A stretch of 64,000 nt of DNA, from IMG/VR virus record IMGVR_UViG_3300032093_014924, one strand, 5' to 3'. Source of the stretch: a virus (Duplodnaviria > Heunggongvirae > Uroviricota > Caudoviricetes). The notes below the pieces were generated by a model. It saw only the letters and a list, made by a program, of their open reading frames with translations. It did not search any database and had not been told where the DNA came from. Below are positions 4,701 through 43,924 of this stretch, one piece after another. The first letter of the stretch is position 1; each line of letters starts with the position of its first letter. The translations under genes and the position numbers were made by a program.

Positions 4701-5993
4701 TTATCCTTTCACAACACCAAAACCAATGTTATCTCTTTCAGCCTCTATTTGAGAATGATAAAAACCTTTATAAGATTCTTTTATTAACTGAAGCGTATCT
4801 TCTAGACTCCACTCTACATTATCTATGGTCATATCTTTTATATTCTCAGACAAGTTATAAATAAACGCACCAGTTATTTTAGTCTTCTTACCATTTATTT
4901 TACCAGTGAGTAAATTATAAACTTCTTTAACTCTCCACTTTTCAGGTAAATAAAGTTCACATACTTTTCTTATTTGCTCATCTGTTAAGAAACCATAATC
5001 AATAATGAAATTAAATCTACCTGGTCTTTCAGCTGCTTTATCAACTAATTTTTTATCATTTGTTGACGCAATAAAACTTATTTTTTGTTTTTTAATACCA
5101 TCAAATATTGTTAAGAATTCACCCAAATTTTGAGTATAACCTCCAGTATCTCTTGACCCAATGAACAAATCAATATCATCCATTATGATAACAGCTTTGT
5201 CGAAGATATTACATGTTTCAATGATTGTTGCCAAATCAGACCCATCAACAAAATCTGGGATAATGAAAGTAGAATTAGGTAATAATTTTTTAGCTATTTC
5301 TCTAATTGTTTTAGTTTTACCTGTTCCTGGTTCACCATTCAACAAATATCTTAAATTACCACCTCTAGACACCACATTAACAAAATGGTCAATGAATTTG
5401 TTTTGAGTGTCATTTAACACTAGTAAATCATTATCACTATCATTGGTTTCAATTATTTCAATACCATGAAATGATGATTCATAAAATTTAACTTTAATTA
5501 CTTTGCCAACATATTTTGAAGAATTAAACGCTACCTTTTTCAATTTTTGAAAAATGTTATTAATTTCTTCATCCTTTATTTTCTTGTTTGTTGATATGTT
5601 TAAAAAACATTCAAAATCACCTCTACTGTTAACATATGCTCTAGTTTGAAAAATTAATAGATAATCATATTCTTTTAATTTACCCATAAACCAAAATGAT
5701 TCAGTATCTTCATGAACACCACCTTGTTCTAATTGTCCAATGTGATTAACTTTACCATATGTCATTACATTAACATCACTTTTATTTTTATTATCTTTAA
5801 AGCAAGATAATAAATATGAATTTATTACTGATAACTCAATAAAAGAAATTTTTTCTACTATTTGATTAACATTTGATAATCCATCGTCTGCGTCATCATC
5901 AATCCCAAGATTAAGTTTACTCATCTCATAAACCTCATGAGGCATGTCAAAATATTCGTCAATACTTCTGGTTTTAATTTTACCTTTTTTCAT
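4701..5993 (-). CDS. AAA+ ATPase
   Basis: Walker A LLNGEPGTGKTK and Walker B IIMDDIDLF. 430 aa. Confidence 0.7.
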   Translation of the reverse strand: MKKGKIKTRSIDEYFDMPHEVYEMSKLNLGIDDDADDGLSNVNQIVEKISFIELSVINSYLLSCFKDNKNKSDVNVMTYGKVNHIGQLEQGGVHEDTESFWFMGKLKEYDYLLIFQTRAYVNSRGDFECFLNISTNKKIKDEEINNIFQKLKKVAFNSSKYVGKVIKVKFYESSFHGIEIIETNDSDNDLLVLNDTQNKFIDHFVNVVSRGGNLRYLLNGEPGTGKTKTIREIAKKLLPNSTFIIPDFVDGSDLATIIETCNIFDKAVIIMDDIDLFIGSRDTGGYTQNLGEFLTIFDGIKKQKISFIASTNDKKLVDKAAERPGRFNFIIDYGFLTDEQIRKVCELYLPEKWRVKEVYNLLTGKINGKKTKITGAFIYNLSENIKDMTIDNVEWSLEDTLQLIKESYKGFYHSQIEAERDNIGFGVVKG

Positions 5994-6003
5994 TTTTTTT
6001 TAT

Positions 6004-6429
6004 TTAAATTAATTCTTTAATTACACTACTTACTAAATTATTATCAAAGTTTTTACCTTTATTCTCCTTATTGAATTTACCAATTAGGAAACCAGAATTT
6101 TTATTATCCCCAGATTGTATATAATCACTAATTATAGACCTAATTTCATTTTCTGTCATTGGTTTAGGTAAATAATCTTGTAAATAACTTAATTCCGTTT
6201 CATCATCAGATGACGATACATTTATTTTCTTTTTGTTTTCTATTGTCTCTTTAAGGTTTTTCTCAATAATCTTTAAAACCTTTAAAACATTTTCATCTGT
6301 TGATTCGATTAACTTTTTTTCTTGTGTTTCAATAGATGCTTTTAACAAACCTAAAAAGTTTTTCTTACCCATGTTTTTTTCTTTAAACGCTTGGATAAAA
6401 TCTTTACTGATTCTTTCTTTTATTAACAT
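6004..6429 (-). CDS. GatB/YqeY-like domain protein (tentative)
   Basis: 141-aa helical protein whose pattern resembles YqeY/GatB C-terminal domains. Weak. Confidence 0.35.
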   Translation of the reverse strand: MLIKERISKDFIQAFKEKNMGKKNFLGLLKASIETQEKKLIESTDENVLKVLKIIEKNLKETIENKKKINVSSSDDETELSYLQDYLPKPMTENEIRSIISDYIQSGDNKNSGFLIGKFNKENKGKNFDNNLVSSVIKELI

Positions 6430-6488
6430 ATTTTTTTAGTTACTTAATGCAAAGATACATAATATTTGCAAGCAAAACAAGTTTTTTT

Positions 6489-6698
6489 TTAATTTTGAAT
6501 AAGTTTTACTTTTTTATTCTTTAAATTAATTAATAATGAAACATATAGGTCATTATCTTTGTATAAGTCATTAAATAAATTAATATTCAATAAAGATTCG
6601 TTTATTGAATCAATAGTCTCACATTTGTCTATCTTATCTATCAAGATATTATATCTATTCAAAATATCTTTAGGCTTTTCGTCAAACATTCTTTTCAT
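6489..6698 (-). CDS. hypothetical protein
   Basis: 69-aa ORF on the dominant strand. Confidence 0.3.
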   Translation of the reverse strand: MKRMFDEKPKDILNRYNILIDKIDKCETIDSINESLLNINLFNDLYKDNDLYVSLLINLKNKKVKLIQN

Positions 6699-6933
6699 TT
6701 AATTTATTCAAATGAAAAATAGATGCCTTAATCAAATCATCTTTATCGTGATAACTATTATCATCAGCCAATTTAATTAACATACATAGTGTTTCACAAA
6801 CGCATGTTATGTCGTCCAAAATAATTTTTTTAGCTTCTTCTTTAGTTTCTGGTTGTTTGAAATCATCTGGTTTACCTATTTTTACAGGTATATCCCTTTC
6901 AGTGTCAATATCAATTATAAGTGTGTTTTTCAT
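6682..6933 (-). CDS. hypothetical protein
   Basis: 83-aa ORF. Promoter-motif variant GTAACAAATGTACTAAA directly upstream. Confidence 0.4.
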   Translation of the reverse strand: MKNTLIIDIDTERDIPVKIGKPDDFKQPETKEEAKKIILDDITCVCETLCMLIKLADDNSYHDKDDLIKASIFHLNKLNEKNV

Positions 6934-7033
6934 GTAACAAATGTACTAAATATATATAACAAAAAAAAGAAAAAACTATAAAAAATTATATTATTATTGA
7001 TATTTCAATAAAAAAAATATTATTTATTTTTAT

Positions 7034-7582
7034 TTGTTAAAATATTTATTAATAAATACATTAATTATGGATAAAATAACATTAGACCGAATTGCATTAC
7101 TACATCCTAAAGTAAGGGAAGAAGTTAGAGATATTTACGTGAATAAAATAACCCAAGCATTAACTGGTAGAGCAATATGTAGATTTGCTTATACTTTAAG
7201 AACATTTCAAGAACAAGATGCTTTATATGCTCAAGGTAGAACAAGATTATTTGATGCTAATGGTAATAGACTTGGTGTCGTAACTAAAGCTAAAGGTGGT
7301 CAATCTATTCATAATTTCGGTTTAGCTTTAGACATTGTTTTAATTGTTGATAATAAAACAGCTAGTTGGGACACTGTAATTGATTTTGATAAAGATGGTA
7401 AATCAGATTGGATGGAAGTTGTTAATATATTTAAATCACATGGTTGGATATGGGGTGGTGATTGGAAATCCTTTAAAGATAGGCCACATTTTGAAAAAAC
7501 ATTTGGTTATACTTGGCAACAGTTATTAGCAAAACACAATGCTAAAGATTTCATAAAAGGGACCAATTATGTTAATCTTTGA
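7034..7582 (+). CDS. Peptidase M15 family L-alanyl-D-glutamate peptidase (endolysin-type cell-wall hydrolase)
   Basis: SIHNFGLALD ... GGDW ... DRPHFE matches the SxHxxGxAxD ... DxxH zinc-ligand pattern of VanY/T5-type endolysins. One of the few plus-strand genes. Confidence 0.7.
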   Translation: MLKYLLINTLIMDKITLDRIALLHPKVREEVRDIYVNKITQALTGRAICRFAYTLRTFQEQDALYAQGRTRLFDANGNRLGVVTKAKGGQSIHNFGLALDIVLIVDNKTASWDTVIDFDKDGKSDWMEVVNIFKSHGWIWGGDWKSFKDRPHFEKTFGYTWQQLLAKHNAKDFIKGTNYVNL

Positions 7583-8049
7583 TTGATTACTTTTTTATAT
7601 ACGTCTAACCATTCTGGTAATCTTTCGTTTTCTTTAATAATATAATCTATCGCTTTTGTTTTTATGTATTTGTTATCTGCTTCATTAATCATTATCATAT
7701 ATGATTTTAAATTAATTGCAGATTCTTTAACATAATCTTCATAATTTAATTTGTCGGCTATTTTTAAATATTTTGCAATTAACCAACCAATATCCCAAGC
7801 ATTTATTTCCTGTTCTAATATTAAAAACTTACTGACATTTATATTTTTTTTTTCTATTTGAAATAAACTAACTGGTTGAATAACATGCCCCAATTCATGT
7901 AATAATGAAAAACATTTATTATTTATTGTTTGTTTGTTGTGTATTAAAATTATTTTATTTTCTAAATCAATATAAGTATCATTACTATTAAGATTAACAT
8001 CAATTAATAATTCTTTTTTCGCAAATTCATTTATTTTGTTTAACACCAT
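7567..8049 (-). CDS. HExxH metallopeptidase-like protein
   Basis: SLLHELGHVIQ = HExxH zinc-binding motif. 160 aa. Confidence 0.4.
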   Translation of the reverse strand: MVLNKINEFAKKELLIDVNLNSNDTYIDLENKIILIHNKQTINNKCFSLLHELGHVIQPVSLFQIEKKNINVSKFLILEQEINAWDIGWLIAKYLKIADKLNYEDYVKESAINLKSYMIMINEADNKYIKTKAIDYIIKENERLPEWLDVYKKVINQRLT

Positions 8050-8061
8050 ATATAATATCTT

Positions 8062-8226
8062 TTTTATTTTAATTTACCATTACCCCAATAGTATTCCCAA
8101 TAACCATGTCTGTTACCATTAACATAGTTTCCTTTATAATATAATTGACCATTAGAAAAATAGTGTTCCCAATAACCATGTGGTTGATTATTTTCATTTA
8201 TTGGTGTTATATTTTTTAAATTCATA
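8062..8226 (-). CDS. small MORN-repeat protein (not in the ORF track because it is under 60 aa)
   Basis: Manual translation MNLKNITPINENNQPHGYWEHYFSNGQLYYKGNYVNGNRHGYWEYYWGNGKLK carries YxNGxxxxxGxxxNGxxHGxW MORN repeats, paralogous to the next gene. Confidence 0.4.
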
Positions 8227-19432: not shown

Positions 19433-19578
19433 CAGTCAGGACAGGATTCGAACCTGTATGTAAACCTTTTATCAACTTACCTTTACCAAAGCGTTTCTGC
19501 GCAACCTACTTTGGATTTATGTTGGTAATTTACTCGTAAGTATAATTGCGTAGCGTCTACCAATTTCGCCACCTGACT
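19433..19578 (-). tRNA. long tRNA-like gene, type-II (Leu-like) acceptor/D/T arms with a roughly 60-nt extra insertion
   Basis: Minus strand reads AGTCAGG-TG-GCGA-AATTGGTAGA-CGC ... ACAGG-TTCGAAT-CCTGT-CCTGACT-G. The perfect 7-bp acceptor stem, canonical D and T arms and a GCGCAGAAACGC variable-arm-like hairpin support a tRNA. Total length is about 146 nt. Confidence 0.5.
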
Positions 19579-19806
19579 ATTTAGCACTCTATTTTATCCA
19601 ACTTACAAGTGCCGAGGCTGTCCTTGACTCCACCAGTTAGGCAATCATCAAGTTAGGAATAAACTATTGAGTGAATCACTACTAGTACACTCTTTCGGAG
19701 CAGATAGTCAATCTGAATAGAATCTTGTCCTATTATCAATCCTCTATGGTTATCACACCATTTCTCATCGTATAAGGCATACTATCCGTTGATTAGTCGG
19801 AACGTG

Positions 19807-19932
19807 TAGTCAGGACAGGATTCGAACCTGTATGAATAATGTTGCAAAACTTGGGAATGTATTTTATCGGTTTTACCAGCAACTTCTTCTAGTCCCATTT
19901 ACTTAGCGTCTGCTCTATTCCGCCACCTGACT
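19807..19932 (-). tRNA. long tRNA-like gene, paralog of the previous one (about 126 nt)
   Basis: CAGTCAGG-TG-GCGG-AATAGAGCAGA-CGC ... ACAGGTTCGAATCCTGT-CCTGACT-A. Same acceptor and T arm as 19433-19578 but a different middle. Confidence 0.45.
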
Positions 19933-22324: not shown

Positions 22325-22546
22325 TTAAAGATTCGATATATCTTTTAATATGTTTTGATTGTTTTTAATGAAACCATAAAACATCTGTTGCATCAATGGT
22401 GGTATTAAATTACCATCAACATACACAACATAATTTAATACGCCAATCTCTTGACCTTTCTTTAAAGTTATTTCATTAGTTAATGAAACATCTTCTGTTA
22501 ATTTGTACCTTACATTATTTATTTCCATATTATTTCTTAGCATCAT
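22325..22546 (-). CDS. hypothetical protein
   Basis: 73-aa ORF. Confidence 0.3.
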   Translation of the reverse strand: MMLRNNMEINNVRYKLTEDVSLTNEITLKKGQEIGVLNYVVYVDGNLIPPLMQQMFYGFIKNNQNILKDISNL

Positions 22547-23801
22547 ATTCTGGGTTCATATATTTACAAGATAAGTCATTACTAAAATGTGTCCTAATAA
22601 CAACACCTTCAATAACTCTACCTTGTTCTTTTTCTTTTGCAATAATTGAATCACAAAACTGACATAATTCTTCATATGAAGATGGTTTAACCAATTCTGG
22701 TTTTGTGTATTCCAAACCTAAAGCGACACATACAGTTTCAAGATTAAATTCACTTGAATAGTTTAATCTTTTTGAAAAACCTTCAGATAAATTATCAATA
22801 CCAAACATTCTAAGTGTTTGTTTTTTATTAGAATCTGGATTATATTTGTTACCAGAACCCTTTAACCCCTGACCATAAATTTCACCTCTAAATGCTAATT
22901 CCAAACCATGTGTTTTACAATATTCTAATCCTTTATCAATTAAACCACTTGAATACGCTAAATCAACCCAAGAATCTTTTACATCAACAAAAATTGGGGT
23001 TAATGAATCAAGTTCTTCATTTGTTCTGAAATCATTTAACGCATCACAATACCAACCCTTTTCTTTCGTTTCTGGGTTAATATATTTATGATAATTGTTG
23101 TTATTAGCATCAAAATAATTTGTAATCGCTTTTTGTTCAAGTTTTTTCTCTAAACTTCTTGAACACACACCAACCTTATATTCACCATCAATAAGTTTAA
23201 AATATGTCGTGTGTGATGAACCATCATGTTTAATTGTAACACCAAACACTGTGTTACCATCACATAACTTCATAACCCTTGATTTAAGGTTTGAATAATT
23301 TTCTTCATCCGTTTTATATAAGAAAGATGGGAAATCACCAGCAATCAAACCAGAACCAGCTGTTTCAGGTTCTTCATATTTTGTAATACCAAGAATTTCT
23401 GTTATATCATCAGTATCTGAATCTTTACCAATAAATGAATCAACTTCACTCTTTGGTAATAAAACACCAAAAGAATAGATAGGGTCTGTTGATTCAGCAA
23501 ATGAGAAATTAAATTTAATTGCCCTAACCCTATTGTTTTTACCTAACCTGCTTTTCTTAGGGTCATTATCTGGCATTGTAAAACTATTGAATAATCCAAT
23601 GTCTGATAAGCAATAATCAGGTTGAATATAACAGGCTTTTGACCCTATTTCATATAACCCTTTTTGTGCAATGACATTGTACCCACATTCATCACCATTC
23701 TTAAACTTAAAGTTGATTACTTGGATACTATTAGCCTCTTCACCATTCTTGTATACAGGAATGATTTTATTTACTTCAACAATTTCAACTGGTTTTATCA
23801 T
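22530..23801 (-). CDS. ATP-dependent nucleic-acid ligase (KxDG nucleotidyltransferase; RNA-ligase-like)
   Basis: GVTIKHDGSSHTTYF = motif I KxDG of the covalent nucleotidyltransferase superfamily. 423 aa. Confidence 0.5.
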   Translation of the reverse strand: MIKPVEIVEVNKIIPVYKNGEEANSIQVINFKFKNGDECGYNVIAQKGLYEIGSKACYIQPDYCLSDIGLFNSFTMPDNDPKKSRLGKNNRVRAIKFNFSFAESTDPIYSFGVLLPKSEVDSFIGKDSDTDDITEILGITKYEEPETAGSGLIAGDFPSFLYKTDEENYSNLKSRVMKLCDGNTVFGVTIKHDGSSHTTYFKLIDGEYKVGVCSRSLEKKLEQKAITNYFDANNNNYHKYINPETKEKGWYCDALNDFRTNEELDSLTPIFVDVKDSWVDLAYSSGLIDKGLEYCKTHGLELAFRGEIYGQGLKGSGNKYNPDSNKKQTLRMFGIDNLSEGFSKRLNYSSEFNLETVCVALGLEYTKPELVKPSSYEELCQFCDSIIAKEKEQGRVIEGVVIRTHFSNDLSCKYMNPEYDAKK

Positions 23802-23947
23802 ATTTCTTTTTTTTTTACAAAGTTACTAAAAAGTTTTTTAATGTGCAAATATTTTTTTTATTATAGGATTAAAATTAAGATATATTTATTTCTTCTATCC
23901 AAAAATTTTCATTTGGAAAATCTCTTTTATATTGAATGCGTAAAACC

Positions 23948-25299
23948 CATAAGTCTTTAGCTTATGTGATATAAGCACTACAAAAATACAAATAAATAAA
24001 CAAATAAACAAATAAATATTTTTTTTTCTTAAAATATGTCTTTTTTAATATTATCATATATTTATCATATATAGAGTTAATCTGATAAATAATGTTAAAA
24101 TCATATAAATATAAACTTAAACCAACTAATGAACAAATTGTTTTATTGAATAAACACTTTGGTTCAATTAGGTTTATATATAATTATTTTTTAAATGAAA
24201 GAAAACATGAATATGAAACAAACAAAAACTCAATTAATTATTATGATAACGCTAAATCATTAACTGAATTAAAAAAACAAGATAATTATTCATGGTTAAA
24301 AGAAATTAATTCACAATCATTACAGGATTCATTAAAAAATTTAGAAACAGCTTATAAGAATTTTTTTAGATTCAAAAAAGGTTTTCCTAAATTTAAATCT
24401 AAACACGATAAAAATAGTTTTACAATACCTCAATTTGTTAAATTAAATAAAAATGAATTATCTATACCTAAATTTAAAGACCCTATTAAAGTCATTATAG
24501 ATAGAAAATTTAATGGTTTAATTAAACAATGTACTATTTCAAAAACACCAACAAATGAATATTTTGTATCTATTTTGGTTGAAACTGAACATAATAAATT
24601 ACCAAAAACTAACAAATCTGTTGGTATTGATTTAGGTATTAAAGAGTTTGTTATAACATCTGATGGTTATAAATATAAAAATAATAGATACACAAAAACA
24701 TACGCTAAAAAACTTAAAGAACATCAACAACATTTAAGCAGAAAAATAAAAGGTAGTAACAGATATAATAAACAAAAATTAAAAGTGGCCACTATTCATA
24801 AGAAGATAACCAATTCTAGAATAGATAATCTACATAAAATATCCACAGATTTAATTAAAAAATATGATTTAATTGTATTGGAAGATTTAAATATTAAGGG
24901 TATGGTTAAAAATCATAAATTATCTAAACATATTTTAGATGTTTCATGGGGAAAATTTGTAACAATGTTACGTTATAAATCTGAATGGAATGATAAAAAA
25001 ATAGTTAACATAGATAGGTTTTTTCCTAGTAGTAAAACATGTAATTGTTGTGGTTATATTAATCAAAATTTAAAATTAAATATTAGAGAATGGGTTTGCC
25101 CATCATGTAATACTAAATTAGATAGAGATTTAAACGCAAGCATAAATATCCTTAAAGAAGGAAATAAGATATTATCGTCAGGAACTGACGATTACAGACG
25201 TGGAGATGAAATAAGACCAACATCCGTTGGCACAATCGGTGAAACGTCTAAAATTCTTAACAATATTGTTAAGAAACCCATTGGTCTTTAGCCAATGGG
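23948..25299 (+). mobile_element. IS200/IS605-family (IS1341-like) TnpB-only insertion element
   Basis: The only large plus-strand gene in its neighbourhood. Flanked by two related hairpins with an identical TCTTTAG loop: CATAAG-TCTTTAG-CTTATG at 23948-23966 and CCCATTGG-TCTTTAG-CCAATGGG at 25277-25299. Confidence 0.6.
24092..25291 (+). CDS. tnpB: TnpB (OrfB_IS605) RNA-guided endonuclease-family transposase accessory protein
   Basis: N-terminal YKYKLKPTNEQ, central RuvC-like region, and C-terminal CNCCGY...CPSCNTKLDRDLNASINI zinc ribbon + RuvC-III signature. Confidence 0.85.
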   Translation: MLKSYKYKLKPTNEQIVLLNKHFGSIRFIYNYFLNERKHEYETNKNSINYYDNAKSLTELKKQDNYSWLKEINSQSLQDSLKNLETAYKNFFRFKKGFPKFKSKHDKNSFTIPQFVKLNKNELSIPKFKDPIKVIIDRKFNGLIKQCTISKTPTNEYFVSILVETEHNKLPKTNKSVGIDLGIKEFVITSDGYKYKNNRYTKTYAKKLKEHQQHLSRKIKGSNRYNKQKLKVATIHKKITNSRIDNLHKISTDLIKKYDLIVLEDLNIKGMVKNHKLSKHILDVSWGKFVTMLRYKSEWNDKKIVNIDRFFPSSKTCNCCGYINQNLKLNIREWVCPSCNTKLDRDLNASINILKEGNKILSSGTDDYRRGDEIRPTSVGTIGETSKILNNIVKKPIGL

Positions 25300-25533
25300 T
25301 AGTTCATCTATAGTGTTTATTAAAGCCATATGTGGAATATGTCTACCAATCAACACAGACCATATTAATTCACGTTTTTGATTTAAATCCCAAACAAAAT
25401 CACGCTGTAAGTTCTTACCTCTTGTTTCTAAGAAAACATCCCAATCAATATTTAATTGTTTAAAGTACTTTACGCTTGAGCAAGCTTCTTCAACTTTTAG
25501 ACCAATATTTCTAAGTTCTTTTATAGTTTTCAT
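25288..25533 (-). CDS. hypothetical protein
   Basis: 81-aa ORF. Its 3' end runs into the right-end hairpin of the IS. Confidence 0.35.
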   Translation of the reverse strand: MKTIKELRNIGLKVEEACSSVKYFKQLNIDWDVFLETRGKNLQRDFVWDLNQKRELIWSVLIGRHIPHMALINTIDELPIG

Positions 25534-26654
25534 TTTTTTAAATGTTCGTATAACCTCTTGTTATCAAAGTCTTTAAGGTATTCTTCTGGTGATGGTGTTT
25601 TACCGTCAATCAAAGAGAAAAACATATTTGAAAATAACATTAAATTATTCTCTGAACAAACTTTAAATACATTTGTGGCGTAATTTTTACGTTCTTCTTT
25701 TGTGTTGTTCTTAGGTTTAAATTCATATAAAACATACCAATAATGATTTAACGCACGTATTAACCCATAATACTTTTCTCTTAGTTCAAGTATCTCATTT
25801 TCACGTTCTTTGAATGTTGATATGAATTCTTCAACTTCATTATTCTTTATTATCCCCAATATATTATAAAAAGATAATTTATCTTTTAAATGGTGAACCA
25901 AAACATATTCAGGATTCTTTAATTTAACTCTGTTAAAATCATTATCAACAATAACATACCCCTCTTCTGAAAATGGCATATTTTCAAAAGTCTTAACCAA
26001 AGAATCTATGTTCTTATTTAGGTCATATTCAGTCACCACAGGGATATTTATTTGTTTTGATACTTCCATTACATCATTGTAAGATAATTCGTTTAAGGTC
26101 TTTAAATCCCTTATTGTTAATAATGTTAGTGAAGATTCAGAATGTGGTTTAACAACAATATTATAAGGTGTCATTAATTCAAAAACATAACTAAAACCTT
26201 TTGTTAATTTATTTTCAGTTAAACCATATTTTGAAGCTGTATTCCAAAACAGTTGATTAAATGTTAAATCTAACATTCCATTAACATTCCCTTCACCTTC
26301 AGCAGTTCCTGTTGTTGCAGCAAACCACTTATCTTTATTCCAATCGTAGTGTAAATTAATTAAAGAACCATCACACTTCTCAAGGATTCTTGCGGTATTC
26401 CAATTAATTGTATGAGCATTAGTTTCACTATGATTAAAGAATTTTTTAAAAGCCATACCAATAACTTTCCATGTGTCTAATTCGAGAATTAATCCACGAC
26501 ATTCTTGAACTTCTTCCAAAGCCATTATTACTGGTGATGATAATTGGTCATACTTTAATATGACTTTATCATAGTATAACTTATGTTTTAACTCTAAATC
26601 AGATACGGTTTTTTCTAACCCATCTCTATTTAACTTTTCAACTATTTTTAACAT
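25530..26654 (-). CDS. rnlA: RNA ligase 1 family (T4 RnlA-like)
   Basis: RILEKCDGSLINL = KxDGSL motif I, as in T4 Rnl1 (KEDGSL). 374 aa. Confidence 0.6.
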   Translation of the reverse strand: MLKIVEKLNRDGLEKTVSDLELKHKLYYDKVILKYDQLSSPVIMALEEVQECRGLILELDTWKVIGMAFKKFFNHSETNAHTINWNTARILEKCDGSLINLHYDWNKDKWFAATTGTAEGEGNVNGMLDLTFNQLFWNTASKYGLTENKLTKGFSYVFELMTPYNIVVKPHSESSLTLLTIRDLKTLNELSYNDVMEVSKQINIPVVTEYDLNKNIDSLVKTFENMPFSEEGYVIVDNDFNRVKLKNPEYVLVHHLKDKLSFYNILGIIKNNEVEEFISTFKERENEILELREKYYGLIRALNHYWYVLYEFKPKNNTKEERKNYATNVFKVCSENNLMLFSNMFFSLIDGKTPSPEEYLKDFDNKRLYEHLKK

Positions 26655-26660
26655 TTTATT

Positions 26661-26966
26661 TTAATTATCTTTAAAGTTTTGTTCTTCGCCATCTAAATTA
26701 TTAAAATATTTTAGTATCTCTGAAATTCTTATGTTTTTTTCTTCAAGGTCATCCATAATCCTTTTTGCAGCATACATTGATGAAATTAACCCATATTCTT
26801 CGACATCTTTTTCATCTAACATAACACCAGCGATAAATATTAATAAACTACCAGCTTTATTAACACAATAATCACCAGTTTCATGGCTTTCTTTACATAA
26901 AGAAGTTCCCATTTCAAATAATTTTGAGCTTATTTCGGCTCTACGTTCTAACATATTATTTTCCAT
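26661..26966 (-). CDS. hypothetical protein
   Basis: 101-aa ORF with the promoter motif abutting the ATG. Confidence 0.4.
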   Translation of the reverse strand: MENNMLERRAEISSKLFEMGTSLCKESHETGDYCVNKAGSLLIFIAGVMLDEKDVEEYGLISSMYAAKRIMDDLEEKNIRISEILKYFNNLDGEEQNFKDN

Positions 26967-26988
26967 ACTACAAAGGTACTAATAATTT
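26967..26988 (-). promoter_or_regulatory. conserved upstream motif instance
   Basis: actacaaaggtactaataattt abutting the ATG of 26661-26966. Confidence 0.5.
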
Positions 26989-27004
26989 TATTAATAATAC
27001 AAAA

Positions 27005-27931
27005 TTATTTTTTCAAAATGTTTTTAACCACGCCAGTTAATTTAATTGGTTTAATTTTTTCCCAATCAGTTATATCATTACTCATTTTAGGTGAACCATC
27101 TGGACTAATAGCTATAGTTATATGTGGTATATTTTTTTTTGATTCATATCCACTTACTTCTATGGCAATTGCTTTATCTGATATACCTAATTTATTACCT
27201 TGTAATATCACTTCTTTATCCAAATCTTTTTCATTCTCAACACCTTTTCCAAATTGAATTGTCATATGATGTGCATAAACTTTCCAATCTTCAGGTATGA
27301 TATCTGAAAACATATTAATCAATTTATTATGTGATTCTTCATCCAATACAACTGCTGAATATAACACATCATCTTTTTTACCCATATCTTTGCTATTAAT
27401 CACTTTTTCAATTGTTATTGGGTTATGTGTCTTATATTTATCAATCATTGATTTAATCTTATCTAAAGGCACATTATGTGTATTTCTTTTGGCCAATTCT
27501 TCTGCTGTTAATCCACCAGTACCGATATTAATAAATTTTATGTTCTTATCATCGTAACCCATTTCTAATGCAGCCATAACATATTGTTTTGGTTCACTTG
27601 GGCTTAAATTGGTATTATCAATTATAACTGGTGTAATACCATCTTTCATAGATTTTATAGCGTTTTTAAGATTTTGTTTATGCATATTACTTAATGGTCC
27701 AAAATCTTTATTTGCCATCATATTATTAAAGAATTCGTTATAATCACCAGTAGCTTCAATTAAATCATCTGTTGAATGGATAATACCATTACCAACTATA
27801 GATTTAGCTTTTGTGCTTTTACCGCTACCAGGTATACCAACCATTATAATCAATTCTTGATTATCTCTGGTTATTGGAACATTTATTATATTTGTTCCGT
27901 TCAATTGTTCTAATATATTTCTTATTTTCAT
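27005..27931 (-). CDS. P-loop kinase, polynucleotide-kinase-like
   Basis: IIMVGIPGSGKSTKA Walker A near the N-terminus, as in T4 Pnk. No HAD motif is visible in the C-terminal part. Confidence 0.45.
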   Translation of the reverse strand: MKIRNILEQLNGTNIINVPITRDNQELIIMVGIPGSGKSTKAKSIVGNGIIHSTDDLIEATGDYNEFFNNMMANKDFGPLSNMHKQNLKNAIKSMKDGITPVIIDNTNLSPSEPKQYVMAALEMGYDDKNIKFINIGTGGLTAEELAKRNTHNVPLDKIKSMIDKYKTHNPITIEKVINSKDMGKKDDVLYSAVVLDEESHNKLINMFSDIIPEDWKVYAHHMTIQFGKGVENEKDLDKEVILQGNKLGISDKAIAIEVSGYESKKNIPHITIAISPDGSPKMSNDITDWEKIKPIKLTGVVKNILKK

Positions 27932-37919: not shown

Positions 37920-39485
37920 CTATTTCATTAATTTAGTTAAAAATTTTTCGTAACTACCATTATTTAAACGTTTTAAATAATCTTTAAACCCTTCTAAATC
38001 ATAACCTTTATATTGGTCTATTCTGAATGTGGCTATTTCATATTCATCACTATCTGTTATAACATTAATGACACCAAATGCTTTTCCTGTTGCTATTGTT
38101 TTATAACCGTTTTCTTGTAATATGTTTTCAATATCATCTGGTTTAGCATTTGTTGCTAAATCATAATCTTTTGGTTCTTTATTTAGTAAAACATCCCTTA
38201 CTGAACCACCAACAAGATATAAATCATAACCATTCTTAACAAAAATATCTTTAATATCTATTATGTCCTTTGGTAAGTTAATATCATATTTAATTCTTAT
38301 TTCAGATGAAGTATTTAATTTATTTTCGTTTTCGGTAAAAAATTGTTTATATTCATCATCTTCTTTCACGTTATTTAATAAACGTTCTTCTTCATCATTT
38401 AATGGTCTATTTATGTTTTTTAAAATCAATTCTTGATGTTTTTCATCATACTTCCAAAAATCTTCTAAAATATCTTCTAATATAGTTACATCATTTACTT
38501 TAATGTTTTCATCATAAATTAATTTAATATAACCATCATCAATCATTTTTTTAACCATTTTATAATGTGGTAATTTTTCTAATAAACCATTCTTAAATTT
38601 AATTGGTAATGAATTATAATAAACTTTTTTTAAGTTTTCATCTAACTCATCTAATTGATAAGGTTCAAAATAATATTCAAAATTTTTTATATAAATTATT
38701 TTTTCATTATTTTTTAATTTATTAAAAAAATCAATACTTAATTTATCACCAGCTAAAGCATCTGAACGCATATTTGGGAAATTAGTTATCACATCACGTT
38801 TTATTTTACAAAATAGTTCTGGGTTTTTAACTTCTACTGGATTAGACGATAGTTTAGATAAATCATATATAACAGACCCGTGTAATGTATTATCATACCC
38901 ATCTATACCGCTAACATTAACACCATTAAAACCATTGTACTCCATTATTCTTGTTGACATGGATGCTAAATTGGTTTTGTTCTTCATGTCATTTGCGGCT
39001 TCTTTAACCATATTTATATATTCACGATATTTTGGAATATTTAAACCTAGGTATTGTGCATTATTTATTATTTTTAAATAAATAATTTTGAATTTGTTAT
39101 CCATTTCAAATTTGCTATCATAAACTCTAACAACTAAATAAAAACTTTCATTTATTAGTTTTAATGTTTTAAATAACATTTCAGCATGGTCTGGTGATTT
39201 AACCCTAAATAAATTTTTATAAATATCAAAATCAACACGATAAATATTATCTTTTATTTTAGTTAATTCTTTTTTTGAGTTATCGGAATCATCAAAATTT
39301 TCACAACTATAAGTAGAAAAATAAAGACCAGAACCAAAATGCCCAGTTCCACGACCTTGCATACGAAATAAATTATCTGAACCATATGGTCTTATATTTT
39401 CTACATTTTCTATATCACCTTTATGGTAATTAAATTCCGTTTCGTTTAATAAGTTTCTTAATTTGAATTTAATATAGTTTTTCAT
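37920..39485 (-). CDS. Unknown about 400-aa N-terminal domain fused to the CCA-adding enzyme head domain (N-terminal half of the split nucleotidyltransferase)
   Basis: C-terminal 90 aa YDLYLVGGSVRDVLLNKEPKDYDLATNAKPDD...GKAFGVINV...EYEIATFRIDQY = class-II polymerase-beta head domain (GGxVRD, DxD, ATFR). The ORF stops immediately after. Confidence 0.7.
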   Translation of the reverse strand: MKNYIKFKLRNLLNETEFNYHKGDIENVENIRPYGSDNLFRMQGRGTGHFGSGLYFSTYSCENFDDSDNSKKELTKIKDNIYRVDFDIYKNLFRVKSPDHAEMLFKTLKLINESFYLVVRVYDSKFEMDNKFKIIYLKIINNAQYLGLNIPKYREYINMVKEAANDMKNKTNLASMSTRIMEYNGFNGVNVSGIDGYDNTLHGSVIYDLSKLSSNPVEVKNPELFCKIKRDVITNFPNMRSDALAGDKLSIDFFNKLKNNEKIIYIKNFEYYFEPYQLDELDENLKKVYYNSLPIKFKNGLLEKLPHYKMVKKMIDDGYIKLIYDENIKVNDVTILEDILEDFWKYDEKHQELILKNINRPLNDEEERLLNNVKEDDEYKQFFTENENKLNTSSEIRIKYDINLPKDIIDIKDIFVKNGYDLYLVGGSVRDVLLNKEPKDYDLATNAKPDDIENILQENGYKTIATGKAFGVINVITDSDEYEIATFRIDQYKGYDLEGFKDYLKRLNNGSYEKFLTKLMK

Positions 39486-39519: not shown

Positions 39520-40407
39520 TTAACAACCAAAAAAATCTTTTAAATCTTCATTTTTTTTAAGGTCTCTTATCGCAAACTCTATTATTTTTTTAATTCTTAT
39601 AGTTGTCATATTATACTCTTCTGACATTTGTTTAATTGTTAATTGTTTATAGTCATACAAACCATAATAATGACAAATAATAACTCTACTTATAGGGTTT
39701 AAAGAATATATTACCTTTTTTAATACTTCGTTTGATTCTTTTTCTTCACTATCTACTTCAAAATCATTGTGTTTGAATAAATAATCATTTTCTTCAGTTA
39801 TTAATGATTTAGTAACAACACTAGATTTAATAGCCATCAATACACTATTTTTTATTCTATCTGTACCAATATCAGAATTATTAATAACATATTCGTAATC
39901 AAGTTCATGACCACATTCTTTCTCCATTTTTGCTTTCAAATTATTTATTATTTTAATTTTAGGCATAATGTTTGAAGATATGTTAGCTACATATAAATTT
40001 TCATTTAAAAACAATAAAATTCTTTTTCTTATATGCCAAATAGCATATGAAATAAATTTATTATCTGAATCTGTTTTGAATTGTTCAATAGCTTCACTTA
40101 AGCCAATATTGCCCTCACATATCAATTCTTCAACACCAATATCACCACTGGTTATTTTTTTAGCATATGTTCTTGCAACAGAAACAACAAATAAAAGATT
40201 ATGATTTATTATTTTATCTTTTATTTTTTTTCTGTCTAATTCATCAGTTGTCTCAGACAACTTTATGAATAGTTCTTTTTCTTCTTCTTTGGTTAAAGGT
40301 TTAAGCTTTTCAATTTGACTGTAATAAGCTTTTAAAGATTCTTTAGATAATGTGTTTACAAAAAAATCATCATTACCAAGTCTTTTTTTACCGAAATCTG
40401 TTATCAT
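39520..40407 (-). CDS. Sigma-70 family RNA polymerase sigma factor
   Basis: Region 2 FISYAIWHIRKRI and region 4 LTIKQMSEEYNMTTIRIKKIIEFAIRDLKK. Confidence 0.7.
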   Translation of the reverse strand: MITDFGKKRLGNDDFFVNTLSKESLKAYYSQIEKLKPLTKEEEKELFIKLSETTDELDRKKIKDKIINHNLLFVVSVARTYAKKITSGDIGVEELICEGNIGLSEAIEQFKTDSDNKFISYAIWHIRKRILLFLNENLYVANISSNIMPKIKIINNLKAKMEKECGHELDYEYVINNSDIGTDRIKNSVLMAIKSSVVTKSLITEENDYLFKHNDFEVDSEEKESNEVLKKVIYSLNPISRVIICHYYGLYDYKQLTIKQMSEEYNMTTIRIKKIIEFAIRDLKKNEDLKDFFGC

Positions 40408-41178: not shown

Positions 41179-41256
41179 TAATCAGGACAGGATTCGAACC
41201 TGTAATAGACGCTCCTTAGAGTCCGCTATCTTGGCAACCAATTCCGCCACCTGACT
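41179..41256 (-). tRNA. tRNA-like gene (paralog of the Leu-like family; the anticodon arm does not fold canonically)
   Basis: AGTCAGG-TG-GCGGAATTGGTTGCC ... ACAGG-TTCGAAT-CCTGT-CCTGATT-A. It shares the acceptor and T arm with the other family members, but I could not find a 5-bp anticodon stem. Confidence 0.35.
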
Positions 41257-41386
41257 AAGAAAATAACTAATGAGGTCTTCGTTTCTCCTAGCTGGCCCAC
41301 TTGAATATTTCTATTCTTGCCCGACTCGAACGGGAATGCTAGCAACCCAATCCAGCTTGCTCTTTTCAGAGTCATTAGTTATTTTT

Positions 41387-41489
41387 GTTGTTAGGACAGG
41401 ATTCGAACCTGTACGCAGTATCTTAATTACAGGCTCTTTTCACGATACTGCCGAGCCATGCGTGCGTCTACCAATTCCGCCACCTAACT
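41387..41489 (-). tRNA. long type-II tRNA-like gene (Leu-like), about 103 nt
   Basis: AGTTAGG-TG-GCGG-AATTGGTAGA-CGC ... ACAGG-TTCGAAT-CCTGT-CCTAACA-A. The middle 50 nt contains a 9-bp stem CGCAGTATC/GATACTGCG. Confidence 0.45.
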
Positions 41490-41757
41490 TCCACCCCACC
41501 TTGAGATTACTGGTGAGTAGATGTATCGGTTTTCTTTCTTTCAATAAACCTGTGGGTCTTACCCTCTTAAAATTAGTCAAACTACTTGGAGCCTCTGTTA
41601 CCTAGCTTTATTCCAAAGAGACTGGCGTTTTATAGAGCTATAACCAGTTTCTACCAAAATGTGATAGTCTTCTTTATAGATATTAGGATGTCCAGTCTAA
41701 TACCCTATTCATTGTTTAAGTCTTGAATTAAAGACTCTGAGTATCTCTTACTCATTG

Positions 41758-41843
41758 TAGTTAGAGTGGGGGTCGAACCCACAAGGGCGTTTCTGCCCAC
41801 AAGATTTTAAGTCTTGCATGTTTTCCTATTTCATCATCTAACC
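41758..41843 (-). tRNA. tRNA-Leu(UAA)
   Basis: GGTTAGA-TG-ATG-AAATAGGAAAA-CAT-G-CAAGA-CTTAAAA-TCTTG-TGGGCAGAAACGCCCTTG-TGGG..TTCGACC-CCCAC-TCTAACT-A. Anticodon UAA, long variable arm, canonical T loop. Confidence 0.7.
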
Positions 41844-41974
41844 ATTTTATTATTTACAGGATAGCGTTAGTTGACTTTATCTATTTTGAATTTGAATGTA
41901 ACTTTTGCTGAATCTATCCTTTAAAATAATTTATATTACAAATTTACTAACTTTTTAACATTAAAACAATTTTT

Positions 41975-42050
41975 TTTATTTTTATACCCTATATGGTATT
42001 AATTTATTTGTTTTATTATTTTTATACCCTATAGGGTAATATTTTTAGTT
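41975..42050. repeat. tandem direct repeat containing the palindrome TACCCTATAGGGTA
   Basis: Two copies of tttttatttttataccctatA(t/g)ggta about 37 bp apart. Lies in the about 400-bp non-coding leader between a promoter motif (about 42204-42224) and the tRNA cluster. Confidence 0.6.
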
Positions 42051-42203
42051 ATTTACAGAATCGGTTTTTCGGGTTGAATTTAAAAGATTCATCGATAATT
42101 TAATTTTGCTGAAATAATTCTTCAAAATAACTAAAATAATTTCAAAGTGGGTTTCTATAATTTTGCATAATTATTCTTTTTTGTTTTGCTGTAACCACTT
42201 TTT

Positions 42204-42224
42204 ATAATACAAATATACTAACCT
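42204..42224 (-). promoter_or_regulatory. conserved upstream motif instance driving the tRNA-cluster leader
   Basis: ataatacaaatatactaacc, with no ATG-initiated gene downstream. About 360-nt leader, then tRNA-Leu(UAA). Confidence 0.5.
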
Positions 42225-42257
42225 TTACCTCATGAAAACAAATTTATTTTCTGTTTT

Positions 42258-42964: not shown

Positions 42965-43317
42965 TTGTAAGGTTTTTAGTGGAGCGAGTCGGAGTTGCAC
43001 CAACGTGTTGGTTATTCTTCAATACCTTTCTACATGTTTATAATGGTTTTCTAACCATTCAAAATACATCAAATTTGTTAAGTTCTCTGATTAGAAACTA
43101 ATGGACTACCATTATGTTGTAGAAAATACTACAATTAAGTAAGTTATTACTATCAGCGATATCAGGCTACCGCAAGCTCTCCAGCGAAGCTACATGTAAC
43201 TTCGTTAAGGAAATTTTCAGAAACAACTAAATCGTTGCCATTTGTTTGTTTTGATAGGGTATTTAAGTGTTTCCATCTAACACTACATGCTTAATACTTA
43301 CGACTATAACCAGTCGA
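42965..43317 (-). ncRNA. ssrA: tmRNA (SsrA)
   Basis: Minus-strand 5' end GGGGCGAUAUUAGAAUCGACUGG... is near-identical in pattern to the bacterial SsrA 5' end GGGGCUGAUUCUGGAUUCGACGGG. The 3' end ...GGUGCAACUCCGACUCGCUCCA is the T-arm-like + acceptor strand pairing with GGGGCGA. A candidate internal tag ORF ...FAGELAVA-UGA ends with a typical hydrophobic (A/L/V)A tag. Promoter motif about 14-19 nt upstream. Confidence 0.8.
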
Positions 43318-43330
43318 TTCTAATATCGCC

Positions 43331-43350
43331 CCATTGTTTTAATAATTATT
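43331..43350 (-). promoter_or_regulatory. conserved upstream motif instance upstream of tmRNA
   Basis: ttattacaaatatactaaaa about 14 nt 5' of the GGGG start of ssrA. Confidence 0.5.
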
Positions 43351-43399: not shown

Positions 43400-43924
43400 T
43401 TATGTGTATTTATCAATAATAGTTTTAAACATGTAATAATATGTGCTAATAGTTGTTTTAGCACCGTGAGTACTAACATTATTAAATTCATTTTTAATAA
43501 CATCAGAAATATTGTTTATGGTTGATGCTTTTTCTATAAATGAAAAACCCTCCCTTTCTTGAAATATGATTAACGCTTTTCTAACGCTGTACGTGCCGTA
43601 AAAAGAAAACGGCATATAGTTTGATTTTATCCAATCCCACATGTCATTAGGGTTGTTTGTGTTTGGTGCTTCTTGATGACAATCTTTACATAGAAGAACA
43701 TAGTTGTCAGGTGAATCACTACCACCTAAACTATGTGGAACTATATGACATCTTTCTAATGAAGGGGTTTTATGTGATTTTCTAAATCTGTCATCACCAC
43801 AATTCCAACAGTGTGTGTGTGCATCGGCCCAATCGAAATTTAATTCTAGTTCACTTATATTACTATTTTTTATCCAGTAATCAGCAATATGTTTTATAGT
43901 TGTTTTACAATATCTTGTCGCCAT
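43400..43924 (-). CDS. HNH homing endonuclease
   Basis: HCWNCGDD...CHIVPHSLGGSDSPDNYVLLCKDCHQ = HNH motif with zinc-binding cysteines. Confidence 0.75.
   Translation of the reverse strand: MATRYCKTTIKHIADYWIKNSNISELELNFDWADAHTHCWNCGDDRFRKSHKTPSLERCHIVPHSLGGSDSPDNYVLLCKDCHQEAPNTNNPNDMWDWIKSNYMPFSFYGTYSVRKALIIFQEREGFSFIEKASTINNISDVIKNEFNNVSTHGAKTTISTYYYMFKTIIDKYT

Follow-up and report, generated by a model that had tools for sequence, protein, structure and literature searches.

What does a gene do that has kept the acceptor, D and T arms of a tRNA-Leu and has no arm with which to read a codon? The question is raised by a 64,000-nucleotide (nt) stretch of DNA from a virus of the Caudoviricetes (IMG/VR record IMGVR_UViG_3300032093_014924; this whole stretch is hereafter the window), which carries four tRNA-shaped elements of 78-146 nt, here called A to D, all on the minus strand. 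They have in common an acceptor stem, a tRNA-Leu-type D arm and a T arm, together referred to as the shell, and their middles are unrelated. A preliminary description had seen in them Leu-like tRNA paralogues with common acceptor and T arms and different, over-long centres, and this holds, with the D arm to be added to the common part. It had suggested that they might contain small bulge-helix-bulge (BHB)-like introns, be tRNA-derived regulatory RNAs, or act as decoys for anticodon nucleases; it mentioned neither their position on the minus strand, nor the structured RNAs that separate them, nor the large family to which they belong in other contigs. The answer that we favour, with a probability of about 0.55, is that the elements are non-decoding, tRNA-Leu-derived scaffold RNAs, which would be processed like tRNAs, could possibly be leucylated and would carry exchangeable structured inserts.

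Anatomy of the four elements

The elements are delimited by two sequence modules. A 20-nt 3' module (ACAGGTTCGAATCCTGTCCT) is present in the window in four exact copies (0 mismatches), where shuffled sequences predict 0.00, and a 16-nt 5' module (AGTCAGGTGGCGGAAT) in four copies with at most one mismatch, where 0.05 are predicted. The two modules are paired, and in order, in 4/4 elements. On the minus strand every element starts with AGT(C/T)AGGTGGCG(G/A)AAT and ends with ACAGGTTCGAATCCTGTCCT(G/A)A(C/T)(T/A). The modules lie where the preliminary description had placed its four genes and are not there by chance, so that both the existence of the elements and their boundaries stand. The shell comprises a 7-bp acceptor stem (A1-U72), U8, a D arm (GGCGGAAUUGGUAGACGC), one base at position 48 that is usually U, the T arm ACAGG-UUCGAAU-CCUGU and the 3' acceptor strand. 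The T arm (ACAGG-TTCGAAT-CCTGT in the DNA) is found in 4/4 elements and the acceptor is of the AGTCAGG/CCTGACT type. Between position 26 and the T stem, at the site of the anticodon and variable arms, lies the middle.

Element A (19807-19932, minus strand) is 126 nt long, made up of 125 nt and a discriminator A at 19807. It combines an AGTCAGG/CCTGACT acceptor, a 74-nt middle and a canonical T arm with a D-loop variant, AAUAGAGCAGA, that has no GG. The same variant occurs in seven other viral contigs, with other middles and with other, still complementary, acceptor stems (AAGACAG/CTGTCTT and TACTACG/CGTAGTA). Element B (19433-19578, minus strand; 146 nt, being 145 nt plus a discriminator G, not A, at 19433) has a canonical tRNA-Leu D arm and a 95-nt middle. 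The D arm of element C (41388-41489, minus strand; 102 nt) is likewise canonical and its middle is 51 nt long; its acceptor, AGTTAGG/CCTAACA, contains an A1.A72 mismatch and its discriminator is ambiguous. Two interleaved helices, GGCUC/GAGCC and GCAGUAUC/GAUACUGC, were read by eye from the sequence of the C middle and may form a pseudoknot, a possibility without comparative support. Element D (41179-41256, minus strand; 78 nt, being 77 nt plus a discriminator A at 41179) has a G2.U71 wobble, a remodelled D arm and stem, and a 30-nt middle in which a bulged hairpin with a UAAG tetraloop occupies the anticodon-arm site.

Shell nucleotides 5-26, as present in B and C, have a 100% match in the annotated tRNA-Leu genes of each of the 5,426 complete E. 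coli genomes, which identifies the D arm as the canonical bacterial tRNA-Leu D arm. The window also contains a genuine tRNA-Leu(UAA) (41757-41843, minus strand), called by ARAGORN and scoring 54.1 bits in Rfam, as the first module of the second RNA cluster. Its acceptor (GGTTAGA), D arm (TGATGAAATAGGAAAACAT) and T arm are all unlike those of the shell, and the elements are therefore not recent copies of it. The interval 19433-19932 consists of A, a structured spacer RNA (sp_AB) and B, that is, tRNA-like, structured and tRNA-like RNA, flanked by two minus-strand open reading frames (ORFs), and reads from its sequence as a compact RNA operon. No terminator-like site was found within it, promoter and terminator scans being uninformative in such AT-rich DNA (the G+C content of the window is 26.6%).

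A virus-specific family

More than 220 contigs of uncultured viruses contain this shell. An exact search of IMG/VR with a 24-nt 3' module found at least 120 loci, and a search with the 5' module again at least 120, mostly in contigs that were new relative to the first scan; the family figures given here rest on the matches listed from these two scans, and the counts are lower bounds. Among these matches there are 219 distinct elements, with 162 singleton middles and 24 small clusters, or at least ~186 unrelated insert types. Element lengths form a near-continuous series from ~60 to ~200 nt, with middles of ~17-150 nt. The elements share phage tRNA gene arrays with normal tRNAs, among which they are scattered. 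Counted over loci of up to 15 kb each, 109 had a single copy, 30 had two, 12 had three and 8 had four to six. Dense arrays in which shells are interleaved with ordinary tRNAs include L176 (at least seven in 3 kb, at ~5100-8200), L010 (six in 5 kb) and L022 (four in 1.9 kb).

The shell family is virus-specific and essentially absent from cellular genomes. When one genome each of 185,579 bacterial and archaeal species was searched, the 3' module was found in only 15 contigs, all of them from metagenome-assembled genomes (MAGs); these belong to scattered phyla and, to judge from their titles, come mostly from freshwater projects, as would fit phage DNA that was mis-binned. Mimicry of a host tRNA-Leu over the whole shell was rejected on these grounds, the 3' module being confined to the 15 scattered MAG contigs and E. 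coli sharing the D arm only. None of 50,697 deposited phage genomes has both shell halves together, and no close relative of the window was found among deposited phages. A synteny search by way of a flanking 246-aa protein returned no relatives, and no description of such a family was found in the full-text literature.

Long middles are a property of this shell lineage. A custom scanner, which required a T arm, a complementary 7-bp acceptor, U8, A14, a D stem and GG in the D loop and allowed lengths up to ~260 nt, found 550 tRNA-shaped genes in 2.17 Mb. Lengths above 92 nt were reached by 183/243 genes with AGTCAGG-type shells, against 16/307 of the other tRNA-shaped genes at the same loci (291/307 being 92 nt or shorter). 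The 16 long exceptions are mostly diverged relatives with Leu-type D arms and A73, whose acceptors are different yet fully complementary. A few elements have an extra hairpin inside the D loop besides the insert in the middle (L095, 3737-3917; L063, 5786-5953, minus strand; L047, 11578-11683, minus strand), so that the shell tolerates insertions at more than one site. Over-long tRNA-shaped genes with class-I-type (non-Leu) D arms were also seen (L173, 269-375; L214, 1939-2083, minus strand; L167, 1708-1814, minus strand), a hint of rarer, parallel shell lineages.

Absence of decoding capacity

The elements lack decoding capacity. In the window, ARAGORN called tRNA-Arg, tRNA-Met and tRNA-Leu(UAA) only, and 0/4 elements. 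With intron detection at default settings it again gave no call for A, C and D, and it rendered B, implausibly, as a tRNA-Asp(atc) in which the intron is 50 nt long, the anticodon stem mismatched and the variable region 27 nt long; relaxed settings turned A into Pro(ggg) and C into Phe(aaa). Thus none of these runs yielded a clean canonical tRNA of normal length, the outcome by which the preliminary description would have judged its own boundaries wrong. The Rfam tRNA model, with a gathering score of 29, gave 34.7 bits for B (with 41-nt and 38-nt insertions), 32.5 bits for C (with a 37-nt insertion) and 28.4 bits, just under the gathering score, for D, and did not match A even at E<=5. Rfam scores of shell elements are 30-45 bits, compared with mostly 48-77 bits for adjacent tRNAs. 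The anticodon region is aligned by Rfam as a local insertion, and in the four elements no 5-bp stem with a 7-nt loop presents a Leu anticodon (NAG or YAA). Measured against a canonical type II decoding tRNA-Leu, the acceptor, T arm and D arm are present and the anticodon arm is not.

Introns do not restore one. Default ARAGORN called 41 of the 219 distinct family members, 11 of them as Leu without introns and the rest as scattered isotypes or '???'. In intron mode the number rose to 168, distributed among 23 isotype classes (Stop, SeC and Pyl included), many with A34 and with varying intron positions, as would result from overfitting to a good shell. In some members the middle measures only 17-20 nt, which leaves no room for an anticodon arm, and middles of 17 to ~150 nt are too short for a group I catalytic core. 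No group I intron or other Rfam intron was found in the window regions (E<=5) or in 88 kb containing 43 long elements. An intron-containing tRNA was accordingly rejected as a candidate, since in ARAGORN intron mode the removal of one contiguous insertion restores no cloverleaf of consistent isotype, and the suggestion of small BHB-like introns fails on the random anticodons, the varying intron positions and the 17-20-nt middles. Decoys for anticodon nucleases are unlikely in the form first proposed because the elements have no anticodon loop; given the T4-like RNA-repair set of the window (see below), some role in a tRNA-centred phage-host conflict remains plausible. The third proposal, of tRNA-derived regulatory RNAs, is compatible with the results and comes nearest to the scaffold-RNA conclusion. 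Taken with the evidence for selection that follows, we regard it as highly probable that the four elements are non-decoding, tRNA-shaped RNA genes under selection.

Selection on the shell, and putative signals of end processing and leucine identity

Both stems of the shell vary in a compensatory manner. Complementary acceptor variants found in long relatives include AGCCAAG/CTTGGCT, ATTAAAG/CTTTAAT, GGTTGGG/CCCAACC and GACCGAG/CTTGGTC, and the set anchored on the 5' module, with canonical T loops, contains the T-stem variants GATGG/CCATC, ACTGG/CCAGT, GCTGG/CCAGC and GTAGG/CCTAC. Such changes indicate selection on the RNA fold. Position 48 is U in 163/181 elements.

The immediate flanks of the shell are those of the genuine tRNAs beside it. 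Position -1 is T in 197/229 shell elements and in 189/276 ordinary tRNAs of the same loci; the discriminator (+1) is A in 209/229 and 191/276, and the following base (+2, C74) is C in 222/229 and 274/276, respectively. A full CCA is encoded by 3/229 shell elements and by 32/276 ordinary tRNAs. This agreement points to the same end-processing context, in which completion of the CCA end would be needed. A gene for a CCA-adding-type nucleotidyltransferase (37920-39485, minus strand; Pfam PolyA_pol head domain, E = 4e-20; PHROG tRNA nucleotidyltransferase) lies 1.7 kb from the second RNA cluster, and its product could be the partner that completes the 3' ends of CCA-less tRNAs and shell elements.

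The conserved positions of the shell (A73, U8-A14, A15-U48, G18G19 and U54/U55/C56/A58) correspond in sequence to the leucine identity set of bacterial leucyl-tRNA synthetase (LeuRS), which most members retain in full. By the account given in PMC9976931 (citing Larkin 2002) and in PMC2377443, removal of the anticodon and variable arms does not abolish charging of E. coli tRNA-Leu as long as A73 and the D/T-loop contacts remain. By analogy, leucylation of the shell RNAs is plausible.

The variable middles

Some middles are conserved where nothing around them is. In orthologous pairs of elements the middle is 79-100% identical, with 250 nt on each side at random-level identity. Pooled over 13 orthologous clusters, the middles show 10 compensatory pairs against 2.7 +/- 1.7 in column shuffles, 0/100 of which reach 10, and 2 incompatible cells against 7.3 expected. 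Between e15 and e50, for instance, GTTGAA...TTCAAC is replaced by GAGCAA...TTGCTC, and the loop between is conserved. This compensatory excess argues that at least some middles are structured RNAs under selection. Within the window, element D as a whole has a fold z-score of -2.06. Purines are also over-represented on the sense strand of the middles (A 0.34, G 0.22, T 0.27, C 0.17), whereas the background is symmetric. The middle of B has no copy in the fetched loci or in the metagenome scan, where a single chance match fell in GC-rich bacterial coding DNA.

Cassette-like distribution

The elements are distributed in the manner of cassettes. In many pairs of loci of 5-13 kb, the sole similarity at the nucleotide or tblastx level is an element of 100-125 nt that is 93-98% identical between the two, and this similarity begins and ends within 1-5 nt of the tRNA-like ends (L117/L141, L044/L234, L054/L185, L090/L107 and L151/L159). 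Copies of element D that are 95-96% identical occur in L062 and L176, where the similarity covers the 81-86 nt of the element alone and the flanks are different. The converse is seen too, with unrelated elements in a shared context. Between the window and L093 the order shell, sp_AB, shell is kept, with shells ~100% and spacer 72% identical, and the middles cannot be aligned (74 against 18 nt and 95 against 61 nt). A middle of the e56 cluster occurs behind different D-loop and T-loop variants. The spacer RNAs are 62-97% identical across homologues, yet their neighbours are shells with unrelated middles or genuine tRNAs; in L046 and L206, whose spacers are 97% identical, the upstream neighbour is a tRNA-Thr in one locus and a 112-nt shell element in the other.

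The most economical reading would be recombination between co-infecting phages at conserved shell and tRNA sequences, with surviving junctions keeping the packed modules intact. SegB-type GIY-YIG endonuclease genes, 36-40% identical to T4 SegB, are present in at least six arrays, and in L040 such a gene ends ~130 nt upstream of a shell element. Homing endonucleases are documented as spreading phage tRNA regions (PMC6409571).

Structured spacer RNAs and other genes of the window

The RNAs between the elements form families of their own. The spacer between A and B, sp_AB (19579-19806, minus strand), is a 228-nt conserved structured non-coding RNA with homologues in at least six viral contigs (L093, L094, L165, L171, L179 and L222); RNAalifold predicts 41 pairs, 22/41 of them with compensatory changes. 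The 267-nt sp_LeuC (41490-41756, minus strand), likewise conserved, structured and non-coding, lies between tRNA-Leu(UAA) and C. It has homologues in 12 loci, 33 predicted pairs (14/33 with compensatory changes), an invariant 5' hairpin AAUGAGUAAGAGAUACUCAG and a 3' block CUACUCACC.GUAAUCUCAAGGUGGGG. Both always abut a tRNA or a shell, the upstream neighbour ending 1-3 nt before and the downstream one starting 4-8 nt after; the gaps are 2-8 nt for sp_AB and 1-8 nt for sp_LeuC. The spacer between C and D, sp_CD (41257-41387, minus strand; ~130 nt), has a 12-bp closing stem, two GAAA-capped hairpins and a T-arm-like CCCGUUCGAGUCGGG; its minimum free energy is -34.8 kcal/mol (z = -2.29 against shuffles), and no homologue was found among the fetched loci. 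None of the three has an Rfam match (E<=5 around both clusters).

Upstream of tRNA-Leu(UAA) lies a 414-nt AT-rich stretch (41844-42257, minus strand) with no ORF of 40 aa or more, a fold z-score of -1.84 and two copies of the palindromic motif UACC(C/A)UAUAGGGUAUAAAAAUAA, which may hold promoter or regulatory sites for the RNA cluster. A transfer-messenger RNA (tmRNA) at 42977-43332 (minus strand) scores 48.5 bits in Rfam, just over the gathering score of 47, and is not called by ARAGORN; an HNH endonuclease gene (43400-43924, minus strand) is directly upstream of it.

The window further encodes an RNA-repair block (22530-27931) with an RNA ligase of phrog_968 (22530-23801), an Rnl1-family ligase (25530-26654) and an AAA_33 kinase-like protein (27005-27931). 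The block is interrupted by a TnpB/OrfB_IS605 transposase gene (24092-25291), the only large plus-strand gene, which suggests an IS605-type insertion. A 476-aa protein with DUF2828 and DUF7788 (49919-51349, minus strand) matches a PHROGs 'RNA-binding protein' at E = 1.6e-151; kinship with Ro60/TROVE was suspected, and no sequence-level match was found in the PDB. Genes for a phage sigma-70-family factor, a ClpP protease and a full-length DnaJ lie at 39520-40407, 43934-44650 and 47745-48737 (all minus strand). This gene content portrays a phage heavily invested in RNA maintenance, as would be expected where tRNAs are fought over, and is circumstantial support for a role in tRNA-centred conflict.

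A proposed scaffold RNA and its rivals

If the elements are scaffold RNAs, they would be co-transcribed on the minus strand with adjacent tRNAs and structured RNAs as tightly packed RNA operons. The tRNA maturation machinery would excise them, with RNase P acting at U(-1)/A1 and 3' trimming following at A73-C74, and CCA would be supplied by a CCA-adding enzyme, one being phage-encoded. The shell (7-bp acceptor, U8, Leu D arm, U48, T arm and A73) would fold as the top half and elbow of a tRNA and would thereby allow the RNA to be processed, to be stable and probably to be recognised by LeuRS, an enzyme that can do without both the anticodon arm and the variable arm. The element-specific insert, of 17 to ~150 nt, would replace the anticodon and variable arms and be displayed as a payload-like part. 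At the level of DNA, constant shell arms and tight packing could let co-infecting phages swap elements or inserts by recombination; the homing endonucleases of the arrays may stimulate this exchange, and the cassette-like patchwork would result.

Taken further, and here we are on speculative ground, the shell would be dual-purpose. As RNA it would serve as a LeuRS-chargeable chassis matured by RNase P and the CCA enzyme. As DNA it would provide homology arms, and possibly targets for homing endonucleases, by which unrelated phages trade structured payloads. The whole would be an integron-like cassette system for non-coding RNAs, with payloads that are aptamer-like or act as decoys in phage-host or phage-phage conflict.

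Several observations weigh against the scaffold-RNA reading. The middles of A, B and C are no better folded than dinucleotide shuffles (z = -0.2, +0.1 and -0.5), and the mean fold z-score of the family is only -0.76 against mononucleotide shuffles. No motif is common to the middles, which show weak k-mer enrichments only; no middle is found in Rfam, where 99/99 gathering-level matches, in the 88 kb with 43 long elements, are to tRNA; and the window middles have no antisense target in the window, their complementary runs of 8-13 nt being in the range of shuffles. No orthologues of the A, B and C middles were detected, that of C having been sought in viral contigs. The covariation of the middles comes from 13 small clusters and could reflect selection merely for harmless, self-contained folding, and that of the shell is partly circular because some of its examples come from the scanner that demanded pairing. 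With G73 in B, a 1-72 mismatch in C and no G18G19 in A, uniform leucylation of the four window elements is doubtful. Finally, all comparison sequences are metagenome assemblies, in which repeated shells could in principle yield chimeric joins.

The strongest rival, although we consider it unlikely, makes the elements decoys or sponges by virtue of their shell only. The top half of the tRNA, ending in CCA or in a leucyl group, would sequester a hypothetical factor that recognises acceptor ends or elbows (defence toxins of the host that act on tRNA 3' ends by modification or cleavage, LeuRS, EF-Tu or RNase P), the middle would merely fold harmlessly, and further copies would raise the dose. This would agree with a shell far more conserved than the middles, with several copies per array, with middles that have no common motif or Rfam identity and weak or absent excess stability, with the full LeuRS identity set in most members, and with the tRNA-repair and maintenance genes of the window, a set characteristic of phages engaged in conflict over tRNAs. 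Against it stands the fact that phages with no other similarity retain particular middles at 80-100% identity, with compensatory changes. Middles of up to ~150 nt would moreover be costly as filler and should shrink to the 17-20-nt forms, which are a minority. Reducing the elements to processing punctuation, that is, to RNase P and 3'-processing signals that free sp_AB, sp_LeuC, sp_CD and mRNAs from polycistronic transcripts, on the pattern of mitochondrial tRNA punctuation, and have no function as free RNAs, is an improbable solution. It would account for the position of the spacer RNAs, always within 1-8 nt of a tRNA or shell element, for the interchangeability of genuine tRNAs and shells beside them and for the similar spacing in T4 (tRNA-Arg, 1 nt, rnaD, 6 nt, rnaC). 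The anticodon arm is, besides, dispensable for RNase P and 3' processing. However, the uniform Leu-type shell (A73, U48 and an exact tRNA-Leu D arm) and the conservation and covariation of middles among orthologues would go unexplained; many elements, including the 3' sides of B and D, border ORFs and not structured RNAs, and real tRNAs already do that job in the same arrays.

It is very unlikely that the elements are selfish DNA akin to miniature inverted-repeat transposable elements (MITEs), with ends conserved for recognition by a recombinase or homing endonuclease or for homology, an ancestral tRNA likeness, and spread without benefit to the phage. Near-identical elements in otherwise unrelated loci with similarity that stops at the element boundaries, ends that form a 7-bp inverted repeat, and SegB-like and HNH genes in or near arrays, homing endonucleases being known to spread phage tRNA regions (PMC6409571), would suit this idea. 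Yet compensatory acceptor and T-stem changes and the retention of U8, A14, G18G19, U48 and the T-loop speak for selection on an RNA fold. The absence of a target-site duplication, and flanks (U-1; A and C at +1/+2) that are those of ordinary tRNAs, also count against a MITE-like element. Copies in the same genome differ in their middles, as all four of the window do, unlike the products of MITE bursts, and spacer RNAs and real tRNAs are shuffled likewise, so that mobility is not specific to shell ends. Interrupted but functional tRNA-Leu genes, in which removal of BHB, group I or other introns from the middles would give decoding tRNAs, are barely credible. The tRNA-Leu-like shell, the 11/219 members called as tRNA-Leu without introns, the CUUAAG-type loop kept in some middles and the two RNA ligases of the window are outweighed by the random isotypes and positions in intron mode, by the many middles (17-25 nt) too short for an anticodon arm, by the insertions that L095, L063 and L047 have in the D loop too, and by the absence of group I introns or other Rfam families from any middle. 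The hosts are, moreover, bacterial (tmRNA, sigma-70), and BHB splicing is not known in bacteria. Decay into functionless tRNA-Leu pseudogenes is strongly disfavoured: the lost anticodon arm, the low ARAGORN and Rfam scores and the unstructured look of the A-C middles are what it would predict, but across more than 220 contigs the shell hardly varies, in contrast to the randomised middles and flanks, stem changes are compensatory, A73, C74 and U-1 are kept as in functional tRNAs, and whole elements are conserved in unrelated genomes.

If the scaffold-RNA reading is true, the elements are a large unannotated class of phage non-coding RNAs and provide a natural system in which to learn whether RNAs that lack an anticodon are leucylated in vivo and of what use a charged, non-decoding tRNA mimic might be. 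To judge from the mosaic of packed tRNAs, shells and structured RNAs of two new families, phage tRNA arrays may be hot-spots for the exchange of RNA genes of any kind. There is a practical side as well: tRNA finders assign arbitrary isotypes to the elements (Stop, SeC and Pyl in intron mode), which could contaminate surveys of suppressor tRNAs and codon reassignment in phages.

Comparison with known systems

The species 1 and 2 RNAs of phage T4 (rnaC and rnaD), the function of which is unknown after 50 years (PMC3014915, PMC9697503), resemble the elements in setting. They are 119-139 nt long and lie inside a phage tRNA cluster on the same strand, 1 and 6 nt from tRNAs, where the distances here are 1-3 and 4-8 nt; rnaC also ends with a tRNA-type T arm and an acceptor-like 3' strand. 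Homology was nevertheless rejected, since the best local alignment with the shell is limited to an 11-nt T-loop core, GGTTCGAATCC. In contrast to the shell, rnaC lacks a tRNA-Leu D arm and its acceptor stem is imperfect, and the T4 RNAs are single copies, with no known family of constant shells and hypervariable middles and no reported mobility. The comparison may nonetheless give them some comparative leverage.

The tRNA-like domain of tmRNA, a genuine example of which lies 1.5 kb away in the same window, mimics an acceptor and T arm, has a large RNA domain in place of the anticodon arm, is processed by RNase P and is aminoacylated. It differs in its reduced D loop, G3.U70 alanine identity, tag ORF and four pseudoknots, whereas the elements have a full Leu-type D arm and no ORF. 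Membership was rejected, the tmRNA model (RF00023) matching 42977-43332 only and none of the four elements. Other non-decoding tRNA shapes, namely the viral tRNA-microRNA (vtRNA-miRNA) units of murine gammaherpesvirus 68 (MHV68), the MALAT1 mascRNA and mitochondrial tRNA punctuation, recruit RNase P or RNase Z and receive CCA. They define the ends of adjacent RNAs without decoding, in which they are similar, but they are eukaryotic or herpesviral and do not combine a constant shell with a hypervariable insert, and the neighbours here are structured RNAs of a bacterial phage. YrlA and the tRNA-Other of Bacillus cereus are non-decoding mimics of the D/T elbow that are handled by tRNA enzymes, and some are phage-encoded. 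YrlA has its RNA ends on the anticodon side and a closed acceptor end, whereas in the elements the RNA ends form the acceptor stem; tRNA-Other retains its anticodon arm, and neither has cassette-like middles. Membership in the Y RNA/YrlA group was rejected on this reverse topology, and no Y-RNA-type Rfam match was found in the window regions.

We know of no natural LeuRS substrate without an anticodon. The minimalist tRNA-Leu substrates of LeuRS, as described in PMC9976931 for Larkin et al. 2002 and in PMC2377443 for Aquifex, come close to the shell, in that an acceptor with A73, D and T arms, and the contacts U8-A14, G18-U55, G19-C56 and U54-A58 suffice. They are laboratory deletion constructs, however, and elements B (G73), C (1-72 mismatch) and A (no GG) deviate from them. 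Non-decoding tRNA mimics are thus already known, and a natural, widespread series of constant shells and variable inserts with a cassette distribution is not. Its closest parallel in design is man-made. In the engineered tRNA scaffold of Ponchon and Dardel an arbitrary structured insert takes the place of the anticodon stem-loop, and in E. coli the tRNA machinery recognises the chimera, processes it precisely and protects it (PMC3753655). As in the elements, the acceptor, T and D arms are kept. The engineered version is built on tRNA-Lys3 or tRNA-Met and retains the anticodon stem, whereas the phage elements are Leu-type, replace the variable region too and sometimes carry D-loop insertions. 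If our reading is right, they would be the natural counterpart of the tRNA scaffold used by RNA engineers.

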